Origin: an uncultured Clostridia bacterium
Lineage (GTDB): Bacteria > Bacillota > Clostridia > Oscillospirales > CAG-272
Direction of reading: 5' to 3'
NCBI GenBank assembly: GCA_945929845.1
Contig: CAMEON010000003.1
Span: 16,723-80,722, forward strand
DNA: 64,000 nucleotides
Part shown: in pieces, positions 24,721 through 57,352 of the stretch
How the letters are laid out: each line of letters opens with the position of its first letter
Numbering within the stretch: position 1 is the stretch's first letter
Position numbers and translations under genes: made by a program
The notes under the pieces: generated by a model
What the model was told of the DNA's origin: nothing
The model's input: the letters and a program-made list of their open reading frames with translations, nothing else
Databases searched by the model: none

Positions 24721-24868
24721 AATTCTTTCTCCATTTACTGTTTACTGTTTGTTGAATTCGGCCTCCCGCACCTGCCATGCCCGGCCTGTGGAAAGCCATA
24801 CCTATTATACAACAAGCAGGAAATTCTGTCAAGGTTTTCCCGGAATTTATGAAAGTTTGGTAGGTTGA

Positions 24869-25031
24869 GGGAACGCCTGGGGGCTTCTTGAAGCGTACCG
24901 AATTTGAATAGAAACCTGTTTGAAAGTTCTTGGGGGTCTGAGTTCGGAAGTTTGCCGCATGGCAAACTTCATGCAATTGCACTGCGTCAGTGCAATTGCT
25001 GTTCTTATCAAGAAGCCCCCAGGCGTTCCCC
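24869..25031. repeat. Palindromic repeat unit related to the MITE family (copy E)
   Basis: Perfect 23-bp inverted repeat GGGAACGCCTGGGGGCTTCTTGA (24869-24891 / 25008-25030). It encloses two perfect hairpins (24947-24970 and 24973-24999). The inner module is nearly identical to 38892-38960. Confidence 0.85.
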
Positions 25032-25066
25032 ATGTACCCGTCTGACCAGGAAGTATGATAATACCC

Positions 25067-25095
25067 TTGACATTCGGTGGGAAATCGGGTATAAT
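25067..25095 (+). promoter_or_regulatory. SigA-type promoter
   Basis: TTGACA (25067-25072), 17 nt, TATAAT (25090-25095). RBS AGGAGG lies before the ATG at 25128. Confidence 0.75.
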
Positions 25096-25457: not shown

Positions 25458-26246
25458 TTGGGAATCAAGCATTTGCCTATGATAAAACTGACCCCCCGCC
25501 TGCAAAGTGCCGTGGACTACGTGCGCCCCGGCCACCTGTTCGCCGATGTGGGCACCGACCATGCGTACCTGCCCATATACCTGTGTCAGACAGGCCGCCT
25601 GACCCCTGTTCCGCTCGCCGACGGGAGCCGCCTCTGCGCCCTGGCCTCCGACATCAATCAAGGCCCGGTGGACAGGGCCGCCGCCCATGTGGCCATGGCC
25701 GGGCTGTCTGACCGCATCCGCACCCTGCGCACCGACGGGCTGTCCGGGCTGGATGTGTACCGGCCCACCGACATTGCCATCTTCGGCATGGGCGGGGAGC
25801 TGATCGTCTCCATCCTGGAGGCCGCCCCCTGGACAAGGAGCCCGGCGGTGCGGCTGATCCTGCAGCCCATGACCCACCCGGAAAAGGTGCGGGCCTTCCT
25901 GCTCGGCACCGGCTTCACCCTGGTGGGGGAGACCCTCTCCCAGGAGGGACAGCGGATTTACCAAACCGTGTGTGCCTGCGGCCCCGCCGCAGACAGCCTG
26001 CCCGTCCGGCCGGAGAGCCTGTCCCCCGCCGGACTGCTGACCGGCTTTTCCTACCCGGAGAGCCAGTGTCCCCTCCACCTGTCCCTCATCGACAGGCAAC
26101 TGTCCTCCGCCGCCGCCCGCCGGGAAGCCCGGGCGATGGCCGGGCAGGATGTGTCCGGGGAGGATGCACTGCTGGAGGATCTCCAAAGACTCCGTGCCGC
26201 AGTGGCCGCCGGGCTGTCGCATGGAAATGCACCGACACCCCTGTGA
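25458..26246 (+). CDS. trmK: tRNA (adenine22-N1)-methyltransferase TrmK
   Basis: LTPRLQSAVDYV...FADVGTDHAYLPIYL...ASDINQGP...DRIRTLRTDGL. It is followed by a nif3-like gene, as in B. subtilis yqfN-yqfO. The start could instead be 25479. Confidence 0.75.
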   Translation: MGIKHLPMIKLTPRLQSAVDYVRPGHLFADVGTDHAYLPIYLCQTGRLTPVPLADGSRLCALASDINQGPVDRAAAHVAMAGLSDRIRTLRTDGLSGLDVYRPTDIAIFGMGGELIVSILEAAPWTRSPAVRLILQPMTHPEKVRAFLLGTGFTLVGETLSQEGQRIYQTVCACGPAADSLPVRPESLSPAGLLTGFSYPESQCPLHLSLIDRQLSSAAARREARAMAGQDVSGEDALLEDLQRLRAAVAAGLSHGNAPTPL

Positions 26247-29960: not shown

Positions 29961-29989
29961 ATTATACACGATGACAGCCCATTTGTCAA
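29961..29989 (-). promoter_or_regulatory. SigA-type promoter of the amino-acid ABC operon
   Basis: On the minus strand: TTGACA (29989-29984), 17 nt, TATAAT (29966-29961). Confidence 0.7.
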
Positions 29990-30030
29990 GGGCTTTTCTT
30001 AAAAAAATGTAAAATGCAATGAAAATGCGT

Positions 30031-30290
30031 GTTACAGTTCGTTACAGTTCAGGCGGGGGATGGGGATACGGTGGGAAACTTCTTGAAAGAAGTTTCCCAC
30101 ACCCTTCAAGAACTTTCAAAACATGTATTGTTTACTGTTCGGGGCGTTATTCTGTCATATATTTGCTATCATTTTCCCAGAGGAGCCAGCGTTACTGTTA
30201 CCCGAAATAGCAAAAACGCCCTCGCGGGGACCCCTATCCCCGCTCTACAGCGAAAAGGGGAGCGTACTACGGGGGTAGGTGAACGGTAAC
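30031..30290 (+). repeat. MITE-like repeat, full-length copy A
   Basis: Starts with tandem GTTACAGTTC GTTACAGTTC and ends GAACGGTAAC. About 85% identical by eye to 36365-36611 and to the reverse complement of 47118-47368. Flanked by AAAATGCGT / AGAATGCGT. Confidence 0.85.
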
Positions 30291-34202: not shown

Positions 34203-34417
34203 TGATTTTTCACAGTTCTCCGACATTTTCGGCAGGTTGTACAAAATGAGGGAGAATTTTGTGGCAGGTTGACGATTGAAAAAAAGTCGCCTGCTTTTCG
34301 CAAGCAAGTGTCTGTCGTGCATACATTGGTTTTTCAGGGAAATGCTGATTGCATGCGGAACTGTAACGAACTGTAGCCGAACCATAACGATTTTCGTGAC
34401 CAACCTCCGGAAATCCC

Positions 34418-34446
34418 TTGACAAGTGGGGGGATTTTGTGTATAAT
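34418..34446 (+). promoter_or_regulatory. SigA-type promoter of rny
   Basis: TTGACA (34418-34423), 17 nt, TATAAT (34441-34446). RBS AAGGAGG lies before the ATG at 34521. Confidence 0.75.
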
Positions 34447-36324: not shown

Positions 36325-36364
36325 CATCCCGCATCCTCCCCCGTGGAGGGTGCGGGATCTTTTG
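36325..36364 (+). terminator. Strong rho-independent terminator 250 nt downstream of rny
   Basis: ATCCCGCATCCTCC-cccgt-GGAGGGTGCGGGAT followed by CTTTT. Confidence 0.8.
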
Positions 36365-36611
36365 GTTACAGTTCAGGTAGGGTACGGGAGAACGCCTGGG
36401 GGCTTCTTGAAAGAAGCCCCCAGACCCCCAAGAACTTTCAAAACATGTATTGTGTATGATTCGGAGCGTTATTCTGTCATATATTTGCTATCATTTTCCC
36501 AGAGGAGCCGGCGTTACTGTTACCCGAAATAGCAAAAACGCCTTCGCGGGGCCCCTCGCCCCGCTCTACGGCGGAAAAGGGAGCGCACGGCGGGGGCAGG
36601 TAAACTGTAAC
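36365..36611 (+). repeat. MITE-like repeat, full-length copy B
   Basis: GTTACAGTTCAGG...CAGGTAAACTGTAAC. Internal perfect hairpins at 36398-36421 and 36546-36564. Flanks are GATCTTTTG / GATCCTTTC. Confidence 0.85.
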
Positions 36612-36652: not shown

Positions 36653-36681
36653 TTGCATTCCGGGGGACTTTGTGCTATACT
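36653..36681 (+). promoter_or_regulatory. SigA-type promoter of the LRR lipoprotein gene
   Basis: TTGCAT (36653-36658), 17 nt, TGC-TATACT (36676-36681). Confidence 0.6.
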
Positions 36682-38766: not shown

Positions 38767-38891
38767 ATGCTTCTCCTCCGTTCATGCAGTGATCCTATGG
38801 ACTGGTAGAGTGTATGCGGCGGGCAGGAAAAGTATGATTCAGTCAGAAAACTGTCGCCGGAATTGTGGTCGATATATGACCGTACCCTTGC

Positions 38892-39046
38892 TTTGAAAGT
38901 TCTTGGGGGTCTGGGTTCAGAAGTTTGCCGCATGGCAAACTTCATGCACTGGCAACATCCGGCATCGCCGGTGGAGCCAGTGCTGTTCTTCTCAAGAAGC
39001 CCCCAGGCGTTCTCCTCCCCCACCTGAACTGTAACCGTACTGTAAC
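38892..39046 (-). repeat. Partial or derived MITE copy D. One end has an expanded hairpin and finishes with GAACTGTAAC-c-GTACTGTAAC.
   Basis: TTTGAAAGTTCTTGGGGGTCTGG...CAAGAAGCCCCCAGGCGTTCTCC...CACCTGAACTGTAAC matches the reverse complement of the copy B 5' end. It shares the GAAGTTTGCCGCATGGCAAACTTC hairpin with copy E. Confidence 0.8.
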
Positions 39047-39073: not shown

Positions 39074-39102
39074 TTGACAAATTGCGCACAGTCGGTTATA
39101 AT
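39074..39102 (+). promoter_or_regulatory. SigA-type promoter of the T-box leader
   Basis: TTGACA (39074-39079), 17 nt, TATAAT (39097-39102). Confidence 0.75.
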
Positions 39103-39109
39103 ATCCGTA

Positions 39110-39452
39110 ACATTGGCGATGACCAGAGGCAAGTAGGCCGGGGGATCCGCACAGAGAACTGCCGGGTGGTGCGAGGCAGGGGGAGAAGCCGGGCTGAATA
39201 CGATCTGTGAGCTGTGTCCCCAAGGATCGACTGCCCGCCGGGCAGGAACCGAAGGGGCAACGGGTCTGCCCGTTACAGCAGAATGACATGACCGCAGGAT
39301 CATCCGCAGACCGGAGATGGCCAACCGGATGCAGACATTCCTCCCGGATACGTCGGCGAGGCCTCTTTCCGCAAGGGAGAGGTGAATAGAGGTGGTACCG
39401 CGGATCCGCCGCCCTCTGACCCCACGGTGGGGACAGGGCGGTGTTTTTGTGT
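39110..39452 (+). promoter_or_regulatory. T-box riboswitch leader (tRNA-sensing transcription attenuator)
   Basis: K-turn GCGATGA...TGAGC, S-turn AGTA, AGAGA bulge, distal loop GGGTGGTGCGA and the specifier region GAA-TAC-GA. The T-box sequence AATAGAGGTGGTACCGCG is at 39385-39402. A terminator hairpin at 39409-39441 is followed by TGTTTTTGT. Confidence 0.8.
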
Positions 39453-41244: not shown

Positions 41245-41312
41245 AGGACGAGGGGAACGATGGGGGGACTTTCTATAGAAAGTCCCCCCGAACCCCTTCA
41301 AAGACTTTTCAC
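41245..41312 (+). repeat. Partial MITE-related copy G (hairpin-1 module only)
   Basis: GGGGGGACTTTCT-ata-GAAAGTCCCCCC perfect hairpin followed by CCCCTTCAAAGACTTTTCAC. This parallels GGGAAACTTCTT-gaa-AGAAGTTTCCC + CCCTTCAAGAACTTTCAAAAC in copy A. Confidence 0.6.
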
Positions 41313-41348
41313 GCATGGTTATCATTCAGAAAAAATTTCTGAAACCCC

Positions 41349-41401
41349 TTGACAAACCACACCGGAAGGTGTATAATACAAACACTTGAACATATGCTCA
41401 A
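41349..41401 (+). promoter_or_regulatory. SigA-type promoter plus a candidate ArsR/CadC operator
   Basis: TTGACA (41349-41354), 17 nt, TATAAT (41372-41377). The 16-bp near-palindrome TTGAACATATGCTCAA (41386-41401) sits just downstream. Confidence 0.65.
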
Positions 41402-47050: not shown

Positions 47051-47079
47051 ATTATATCACATTTTCTCCCCGCTGTCAA
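47051..47079 (-). promoter_or_regulatory. SigA-type promoter of rpmG-secE-nusG-rplKA
   Basis: Minus strand: TTGACA (47079-47074), 17 nt, TGA-TATAAT (47056-47051), with an A/T-rich UP-like stretch upstream. The leader is ~170 nt. Confidence 0.75.
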
Positions 47080-47117: not shown

Positions 47118-47368
47118 GTTACAGTTCACCTACCCCCCGCCGTGCGCTCCCTTTTCCGCCGTAGAGCGGGGCGAGGGGCCCCCGCGAAGGCGTTTCTGCT
47201 GTTTTGGGCATCAGCAACGCTGGCTCCTTTGGAAAAACGACAACAAATATATGACAGAATAACGCTTCGAATCATACACAATACCTGTTTTGAAAGTTCT
47301 TGAGGGGTGTGGGGAACTTCTTTCAAGAAGTTCCCCACCGCATCCCGTACCCCCACTTGAACTGTAAC
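47118..47368 (-). repeat. MITE-like repeat, full-length copy C (inverted orientation)
   Basis: GTTACAGTTCACC...CTTGAACTGTAAC. The hairpins are at 47311-47336 and 47166-47185. It is flanked by CAGCCTT on both sides. Confidence 0.85.
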
Positions 47369-47653
47369 CAGCCTTGTTACAGTTCAACCAGGCGGCTTTG
47401 AAACAATCGCATAACCTCATGCTTCATATGTGTCATACTTTGCATTTCGGACGGATATGGAATCTGCCCCAATAACGGTAGGGGCGAACTGTGTTCGCCC
47501 GCATGGAACTGGGCGACCACATCCGTATACGGCGGTCGCCCCTACCATTGTAAAAACCTGTACGGAATATCATATGATACGGTTATTCCACGGCCACCAG
47601 GCTGAACTGTAAAACCTGAACTGTAATTTTTATATAAAGTGCGATGAAGCCTC

Positions 47654-47703
47654 TTGACAAATACCCTCCGGGGGTATATAATATACATACCCTCCGGGGG
47701 TAT
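47654..47703 (+). promoter_or_regulatory. csoR-copA promoter with two CsoR operator copies
   Basis: TTGACA (47654-47659), 17 nt, TATAAT (47677-47682). ATACCCTCCGGGGGTAT occurs twice (47661-47677 and 47687-47703) and matches the B. subtilis copZA CsoR operator TACCC-N-GGGGGTA as recalled. Confidence 0.8.
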
Positions 47704-50781: not shown

Positions 50782-50853
50782 GTTACAGTTCAGGTAGGGT
50801 ACGGGAGAACACCAGGGCTGTTCTTCTCAAGAAGTTCCCCACCGTATCCTTCG
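50782..50853 (+). repeat. Truncated MITE copy F (5' end only)
   Basis: GTTACAGTTCAGGTAGGGTACGGGAGAAC is identical to the start of copy B. It is followed by a degenerate right hairpin arm, CTCAAGAAGTTCCCC. Confidence 0.75.
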
Positions 50854-52284: not shown

Positions 52285-52450
52285 AAACGCCCGGGCAGGA
52301 CAAAAGCCGCCGGGCTGACACCGCTTTTATCTTCTCCCATCCAGACTGTAACTGTCGATGCAGGAATTGCACCTGCTCAGCCTGCGCCGTGTGGCACAGG
52401 GTCGCGGATTTTTACCGCCGGTATGGAATTTCACCAATCCCCGAATATTT
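52285..52450 (-). promoter_or_regulatory. Cobalamin-riboswitch-like aptamer. The expression platform continues to the RBS at about 52175.
   Basis: Minus strand: GGGGATTGGTGAAATTCCATACCGGCGGTAA...GCGA, ...ACAGT...GGATGGGAGAAG and the B12-box-like CAGCCCGG...GTCCTGCCCGG. These have the same order and wording as E. coli btuB (GGGAATCCAGTGCGAATCTGG..CGCAGCGGTAA..GCGA, CACTGCC..GGTGGGAAG, AAGCCCGAAGACCTGCCGG) as recalled. Confidence 0.6.
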
Positions 52451-52502
52451 TTAATTAGAAATCATTGGATCCCCTGCCCGGTTCCCCGGTGCGGTGGGTG
52501 CG

Positions 52503-57323: not shown

Positions 57324-57352
57324 ATTATAGCATAAGGTGGCCCTTTTGTCAA
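57324..57352 (-). promoter_or_regulatory. SigA-type promoter of the str operon (rpsL)
   Basis: Minus strand: TTGACA (57352-57347), 17 nt, TGC-TATAAT (57329-57324). Confidence 0.75.

Follow-up and report, generated by a model that had tools for sequence, protein, structure and literature searches.

In the window (the whole 64-kb stretch of DNA analyzed here, from an uncultured gut Firmicute) and in related DNA, short mobile elements that lie upstream of host promoters nearly always end 40 ± 2 nt from the -35 hexamer. The observations show a mobile element that makes target-site duplications (TSDs), promoters that belong to the host, a spacing that is maintained, and repeated insertion at the same positions. 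We consider it probable that insertion is aimed at a narrow promoter-upstream zone and that the spacing is fixed as the element goes in, with promoter-bound RNA polymerase as the putative ruler. That the spacing is set at insertion and not by later selection we infer from where the copies sit when there is room to sit elsewhere, from recent insertions that recur, and from the behavior of a second, unrelated family.

The terminal motif GAACTGTAAC, allowing at most one mismatch, occurs 17 times in the 64-kb window against 1.9 occurrences expected, a count reached in none of 100 shuffles. The motif makes up the outermost 10 nt of the terminal inverted repeat (TIR) in a MITE-like family of about 250 bp, here called family 1, whose full repeat is GTTACAGTTCA...TGAACTGTAAC. 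TIR ends are present on elements A, B, C, and D (Table 1) and on the copies in L014, L015, L017, L018, L060, and L062. The elements A, B, and C are 84-88% identical to one another; copy lengths run from 135 to 260 bp, and several interior variants exist. The hairpin of element B in L001 (9405-9466) and in L008 has an extra palindromic module of about 60 nt compared with window positions 36415-36419, and the same module is also found in E, G, and L029, indicating that element interiors are mosaic.

The only open frames in the copies are chance ORFs of 50-95 aa without a Pfam domain. In A and C one frame is open throughout (86 and 76 aa; window 30029-30289, plus strand, and 47126-47356, minus strand), and databases contain such ORFs as hypothetical proteins predicted by gene callers (P0001-P0008, P0129-P0145), which are probably spurious. 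Together with strain-contig look-ups, the chance ORFs inside the element served as handles by which further copies were sampled. An exact scan with the 18-mer CCCTACCTGAACTGTAAC gave three chance-level loci in the genome collection and five loci in the metagenome collection; no autonomous partner with GTTACAGTTCA-type ends was present in these eight loci, and the sole transposase gene found inside a copy has other ends. Element B had no BLAST match among plasmids and phages, and a literature search for GAACTGTAAC returned unrelated primers only. Rfam had no match on any family-1 copy. Its matches in the window are confined to a T-box leader (39110-39419, plus strand; 79 bits, below the Rfam gathering score of 93), upstream of an SSF transporter gene, and an FMN riboswitch (52325-52452, minus strand), upstream of an ECF-type riboflavin transporter gene.

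Two other identities were entertained for the repeats. Palindromic repeats of the REP/BIME type are short imperfect palindromes that make no target duplication and have a RAYT-type enzyme as their mover. They are ruled out here, the units being about 250 bp long with TIRs and duplications of 7-9 bp. A likeness of GAACTGTAAC to the LexA box or another known operator found no support and was dropped.

Mobility is evident from the comparison of strains. Contigs 98-99% identical to the window were retrieved through its proteins from gut metagenomes and two MAGs. In nine of them (L002, L004-L007, L019, L020, L023, and L030) element B is precisely absent: the empty site reads GGGATCTTTTCGTGCGG and the filled site GATCTTTT(G)[element]GATCTTTTCGTG, giving an 8-bp TSD, GATCTTTT. 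The LRR promoter next to it, TTGCAT-17-TATACT, is identical with and without B. Over the family as a whole the TSDs are 7-9 bp long (GATCTTTT, GAACCATA, ACGAACTGC, CAGCCTT, AGCCTTGT, TATTGCAT, CCGCCTTC, and AAGTGATC), and some old copies have none. The empty site of B and the other 7-9 bp duplications establish that family 1 is a MITE-type transposon and that the promoters are host DNA; TIRs, TSDs, an empty site, and a small size without a transposase gene are all found. All family-1 polymorphisms among about 20 strain contigs fall in promoter-upstream zones.

Gene order breaks exactly at some copies. A different gene follows B in L003 (9434-9700; = L031), L060 and L061 have different left neighbors at 2500-2960, and L004 and L030 break upstream of 34338. 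This suggests recombination between copies or, alternatively, assembly chimeras at repeats.

The sequence-only reading had picked out six ends that lie upstream of consensus promoters, and a recount returned the same cases and gaps: rny (34358-34377, 40 nt to TTGACA at 34418), T-box/SSF (39026-39046, 27 nt), csoR (47604-47627, 26 nt), the ABC operon (minus strand, 30050-30031, 41 nt), rpmG (minus strand, 47127-47118, 38 nt), and LRR (36602-36611, 41 nt to TTGCAT at 36653). Its remark that the motif reads towards the promoter is true but trivial, as any outward end of an element with inverted ends does so. Five of the six promoters are perfect TTGACA-17-TATAAT, the LRR promoter being the sixth. 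The spacer is 17 nt in all the promoters, so the -35 box, the -10 box, and the transcription start are equally possible as the reference point for the spacing. The promoters are credible; the start site predicted from the one at 39074, for instance, coincides exactly with the beginning of the T-box leader.

The DNA between the element end and the -35 box has a mean pairwise identity of 0.29, and the only feature common to these stretches is A/T-rich tracts 5-16 nt ahead of the -35 box. Element-free promoters (57352 and 17400) have such tracts too and the same host architecture. With only 29% identity, the flanks are not homologous, which argues that the promoters belong to the host, as does the promoter in the empty site of B; the earlier view that the promoters lie outside the element is thus borne out. 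Two candidates fall with these results. Promoters traveling as part of a larger mobile cassette do not agree with unrelated flanks and spacers or with a promoter kept in the empty site. Nor is this a promoter-carrying MITE of the Correia type, given the promoter in the B empty site and -35 boxes that lie 26-42 nt outside the element.

The 64 kb hold nine perfect promoters (24804-24832, 25067-25095, 29961-29989, 34418-34446, 39074-39102, 41349-41377, 47051-47079, 47654-47682, and 57324-57352). In front of most of these stand CC(C) and an A/T-rich tract, and eight have an element or a relic upstream. Perfect promoters may attract the element, or they may evolve after its arrival.

Table 1. Family-1 copies, relics, and neighboring features. 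Positions are those of the window; the gap is counted from the named element end to the -35 hexamer. The last six rows are loci outside the window.
Feature	Positions	Strand	Gap to -35 (nt)	Remarks
Solo end of MITE-2	34338..34357			TIR GGAAAYGCTGATTGAATG, TTAG/TTAA-type duplication; directly adjoins the motif array
Array of three TIR-like 10-mers (GAACTGTAAC, GAACTGTAGC, c, GAACCATAAC)	34358..34388	+		No element body in the window strain
Host upstream DNA, 29 nt	34389..34417	+		A/T-rich, UP-like; retained in all strains
rny promoter	34418..34446	+		Perfect TTGACA-17-TATAAT; precedes the RNase Y gene
Element A	30031..30290	+	41 (outer copy of left end), 51 (inner copy)	Left end duplicated in tandem; flanking repeat AAAATGCGT / AGAATGCGT; ABC-operon promoter 29989-29961 (minus strand)
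Element B	36364..36611	+	41 (right end)	Left end on the T-tract of the rny terminator; LRR promoter 36653-36681
Element G	38889..39046	-	38 (body-contiguous end), 27 (outer fragment)	Left-truncated; body-contiguous right end 39026-39035, outer fragment 39037-39046; -35 at 39074
Element C	47118..47368	-	38 (left end)	Directly abuts D; TSD CAGCCTT; promoter of rpmG-secE-nusG at 47079-47051 (minus strand)
Element D	47376..47627	+	40 (inner right end, 47604-47613)	Family ends, different interior; csoR promoter 47654-47682
Element E	24869..25039			Without TIRs, truncated/rearranged; between divergent perfect promoters 24832-24804 (-) and 25067-25095 (+)
TIR-less relic	41250..41320	+		Upstream of perfect promoter 41349-41377
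Partial element	50782..50850	+		Between convergent genes; no promoter nearby
Copy in L060			40	ECF-sigma promoter; other region of the same species
Copy in L061			41 and 40	Divergent pair
Copy in L062			40	ProRS promoter
Copy in L062			39	Hydrolase promoter
Copy in L017			42	Other organism
Copy in L018			40 and 40	Other organism

Gaps were counted, by script and by hand, up to the first T of the -35 hexamer, starting at the end that runs on into the element body. Measured this way in a sample of 14 loci, which is not a genome, the end lies 38-42 nt from the hexamer at 13 of the 14, in at least three organisms (p about 1e-11 to 1e-16, and <1e-10 for any plausible range). Minor gap classes are found at 26-29 nt and 50-52 nt. 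Four elements lie between divergent promoters and are about 40 nt from both. The clean exception to the 38-42 nt rule is the 41349 site, where L024 and L026 have a full copy whose end is 28-29 nt from the -35 box; L067 is ambiguous, as its gap to a weak promoter (9/12) is either 17 or 29 nt.

The spacing is tighter than the sequence-only reading had stated, once the body-contiguous end is used. The gaps of 26 and 27 nt are as it measured them, but they belong to an outer fragmentary copy, the body-contiguous end being at 40 nt in D and 38 nt in G. It had also placed TIR-less ends of E and G close to -35 boxes, which is true of E, with a boundary 36 nt from the minus-strand -35, but not of G, to the left of which there is no convincing promoter. 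A first reading of our own, that E ends 13-16 nt from its -35 boxes, was overturned by a canonical copy at the E site in L034, with gaps of 39 and 40 nt to the two -35 boxes.

An unbiased scan covered non-redundant DNA totaling 178 kb. This DNA holds 17 perfect promoters, nine with an outward-reading motif within 150 nt upstream; a single inward-reading motif was found. The gaps are 26, 27, 38, 38, 40, 40, 40, 40, 41, 42, 50, 51, and 91 nt. Eight of these 13 gaps fall in a single 5-nt bin (p = 1.6e-9, or 2.4e-7 when corrected for bin choice), and no copy in the scan lies 43-49 or 53-90 nt from a perfect promoter. At least seven family-1 copies lie away from any recognizable promoter, inside operons, beside stop codons, or between convergent genes (for instance in the pth-mfd spacer, 1 nt past the polA stop codon, 31 nt before a start codon, and after terminators).

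Insertions also recur. The array upstream of rny consists of relic ends and is a recurrent insertion target: other strains have three independent insertions inside it, with end-to--35 gaps of 39, 40, and 52 nt. One of them has the TSD ACGAACTGC (L029, L009, and L002), another the TSD GAACCATA (L002 and L005), and the third is in L007 and L010. Upstream of rpmG there are two insertions in opposite orientations, that of element C and an independent one in L021 with the TSD AGCCTTGT, a gap of 40 nt, and a 2-nt overlap with the TIR of D. Recurrent insertions at the rny and rpmG sites are 1-13 nt apart. The copy in L014 is 1 nt from a resident end.

Could such regularity arise after insertion? If elements entered intergenic DNA at random, and if a promoter could work only with about 32 nt of its native DNA kept in front of the -35 box, then in compact spacers the survivors would be left at about 40 nt by selection only. 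The A/T-rich, UP-like tracts 5-16 nt upstream of the -35 box are in keeping with such a need. Some sites offered little choice in any case: a terminator and the -35 box left a space of about 35-41 nt for B, the L060 copy, and the copy at 41349 (38-41 nt for B and L060). The four elements between divergent promoters are centered in what would have been, prior to insertion, gaps of 70-73 nt from one -35 box to the other, which may be a minimal natural spacing with the center alone tolerating an insertion, and the copies away from promoters hug functional edges, as seen at the polA stop codon and before the start codon. We nevertheless regard selection, the chief rival, as a rather unlikely explanation of the spacing. 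Where the free window is wide, as at A (about 92 nt free), L062 (about 67 nt), and L017 (more than 100 nt), the copy is still promoter-proximal at 40-42 nt. When each of nine sites is given its own free window and a protected UP zone of 24 nt, the joint probability of the observed positions is still 7e-7. The empty intervals at 43-49 and 53-90 nt from perfect promoters also weigh against selection.

The age of the insertions and the comparison with another element bear on the same question. The spacing is already present in strain-specific insertions, which must therefore be recent, and these recur at the same nucleotides. A second MITE family, MITE-2, enters the same regions but does not obey the family-1 spacing. 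It is unrelated to family 1, about 160 nt long, strain-polymorphic, and has inverted ends GGAAACGCTGATTGAATG...CAATCAGYGGTTCC with TTAG or TTAA flanks. Full copies of about 160 nt occupy the 34338-34357 site in L030 and L004, and others are found at window positions 25467 (L030) and 27470 (L035); in the contigs themselves, MITE-2 sequences are at L030 3727-3887 and 12764-12926, L035 2740-3227, and L004 1-79. Roomy sites, recent and recurrent insertions, and a second MITE family that inserts elsewhere together favor placement at insertion. A further insertion of about 136 nt, a GC-rich hairpin between DUF1858 and trmK (L034 4077-4214, window about 25455), is unrelated to both MITE families.

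Recurrence might also come about if the transposase were drawn to its own terminal repeat, the spacing then being inherited from a few founders. Copies do lie against resident ends: C is flush against D, the L021 copy overlaps the TIR of D, the L014 copy is next to a resident end, the insertions upstream of rny are within the 10-mers of the array, and a TIR-like sequence, GTTACCGTTG, lies beside A. Adjacency of this kind is, however, expected under promoter targeting too, since the duplication re-creates the target and later copies would come to lie flush against resident ends, as C does against D and as in L014. The positions of the founders themselves go unexplained by homing, and the empty site of B has no TIR-like motif. 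Nor is there a relic beside the copies in L060, L062 (two copies), L017, and L018, each of which stands singly at 39-42 nt. We therefore find homing to resident ends hard to credit as the source of the spacing.

The tandem outer copies of D, G, and A and the rny array are best read, from their sequence, as terminal fragments of earlier insertions. They would be what remained after a new copy had entered the zone 10-14 nt to the inner or outer side of a resident end and the resulting nest had collapsed. In D, the outer copy, ACCTGAACTGTAAT, corresponds to the final 14 nt of the canonical end and not to a bare 10-mer.

A transposase gene does occur inside one copy. In L018 a gene for a 526-aa IS1182-family transposase (NF033551, E 2e-82) lies inside a family-1 copy, and the IS1182-type ends, GGAGCCGTAAAAAAAGTCCCC in L018 and AAGGGGCTGTAAAAAAAGTCCC in the P0123 loci, differ from GTTACAGTTCA. 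In L018 the IS ends lie inside the element, and the IS takes the place of its central hairpin. The L018-type site exists with a plain element as well (P0006), and L059 has the element on one side only. From the internal IS ends and these two cases it follows that IS1182 is a separate secondary passenger and not a demonstrated parent. The 2.1-kb unit of L018 was considered as the parent and rejected on account of its own internal ends and of relatives at 64-73% identity that lack GTTACAGTTC ends.

The IS1182 units span 1037-2939 in L018 and 150-2030 in L059. In L002 (1-50), a strain of the window's species, the same IS end is found upstream of rny. The hairpin arms of the element, GGGGGCTTCTT/AAGAAGCCCCC, are vaguely like the tips of the IS ends. 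Tandem arrays of 7-8 bp units are found by element or IS ends: CTACTGT, repeated about 14 times with CTACTGTAAC at the end (L064 10190-10275), ACTGTCAA about five times (L062 16395-16420), and TACGGTC three times (L059, about 2030-2055). The unit has the length of a TSD, and the arrays could be footprints of insertion and excision or products of slippage.

The sequence-only reading had offered two alternatives, targeting of the region upstream of promoters, and a protein-binding site that the element has distributed to unrelated operons. Polymorphic copies, TSDs, recurrence, and the spacing in three organisms favor the first. A spread binding site is not needed, since recent, strain-specific copies have the spacing from the outset and the tandem motifs are accounted for as end fragments. 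In its developed form, the second alternative takes the terminal repeat to be a putative site for a regulator or for the transposase, with copies at an activating distance or helical phase being kept. Class I activator sites, as in CRP-type activation, have a range near -70 to -80. The element end is centered near -80 and tandem copies near -70, within that range; the three gap classes (26-29, 38-42, and 50-52 nt) are roughly one helical turn apart. Against this, copies are present or absent among near-identical strains with the promoter unchanged, and the operons concerned have no function in common. Tandem outer copies such as ACCTGAACTGTAAT are end fragments of earlier elements, and degenerate or TIR-less copies (E and the right end of the L061 copy) hold the same position. 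Regulatory exaptation accordingly strikes us as very improbable.

We prefer the view that placement is made at the promoter, and the following steps would account for it. A putative DDE-type transposase would move the MITE of about 250 bp by staggered target cuts of 7-9 bp. New copies would enter a narrow zone upstream of sigma-A-type promoters and not random intergenic DNA, the duplicated 8 bp lying about 32-40 nt upstream of the -35 box, or roughly at -75 to -68 from the transcription start. This would put the element end at 40 ± 2 nt from the -35 box while leaving the promoter its own UP-like DNA. Minor registers would lie about one helical turn nearer (26-29 nt) or further (50-52 nt). As the duplication would re-create the target beside the promoter, the zone would remain a hot spot, later copies landing beside or within the end of a resident copy; collapse of such nests would leave tandem end fragments, as upstream of rny.

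The ruler in this scheme would be some protein that marks the promoter; bound RNA polymerase, with the alpha C-terminal domains, is the simplest candidate, and the target would be the first free, bent DNA at about -70. Our more specific suggestion, which is tentative, is that the transposase may measure from promoter-bound RNA polymerase, either from the alpha C-terminal domains or from the bend at its upstream edge, to a point about 72 bp before the transcription start; secondary registers would be offset by one helical turn. The three gap classes one helical turn apart would fit a target on one face of the DNA, but nesting would produce them equally, and we do not lean on them.

If targeting is the correct reading, it would explain how elements can be so dense without harm to the host, with a copy or relic at eight of the nine perfect promoters of the window. 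The element would also be a natural tool to mark active promoters, and it would raise the question of how a transposase reads a promoter. There is a practical side as well: the copies break short-read assemblies at promoter regions and add spurious "hypothetical proteins" to databases.

Bacterial MITEs are short and non-coding, have TIRs and TSDs, are found in many intergenic copies, vary among strains, and often lie upstream of genes (PMC10969869). In these general traits family 1 resembles the known bacterial MITEs, such as the Correia elements of Neisseria and RUP of pneumococcus. Correia elements, however, act via promoters of their own, whereas family 1 has promoters of the host beside it, about 40 nt beyond the element end, and the promoter is there in the empty site as well. 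The literature searched, including a review of MITEs (PMC10969869), contained no report of a fixed distance to host promoters for MITEs or insertion sequences. If the spacing is set at insertion, family 1 would be a case of a bacterial transposon that finds its target by the architecture of a promoter and not by sequence.

The insertion sequences IS5 and IS1 have hot spots upstream of silent or weak operons of E. coli (glpFK, flhDC, and bgl). They share with family 1 reproducible positions upstream of promoters, and in their case the positions are influenced by DNA structure and bound regulators. The IS5 and IS1 hot spots are, however, few, locus-specific, and recovered under selection for activation, whereas family 1 follows one spacing rule at no fewer than 14 unrelated promoters, with no evidence of activation. 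In yeast, Ty3 integrates at the start sites of Pol III transcription and Ty1 upstream of Pol III genes. As with family 1, their position is given by distance from a transcription complex and not by sequence, the same spots recur, and the flanks are non-homologous. The Ty elements differ in being eukaryotic LTR retroelements with a known protein tether, whereas family 1 is a bacterial element with TIRs and TSDs, for which a tether would act about 72 bp upstream of the start site. Should the polymerase prove to be the ruler, family 1 would be a bacterial counterpart of polymerase-tethered Ty integration.
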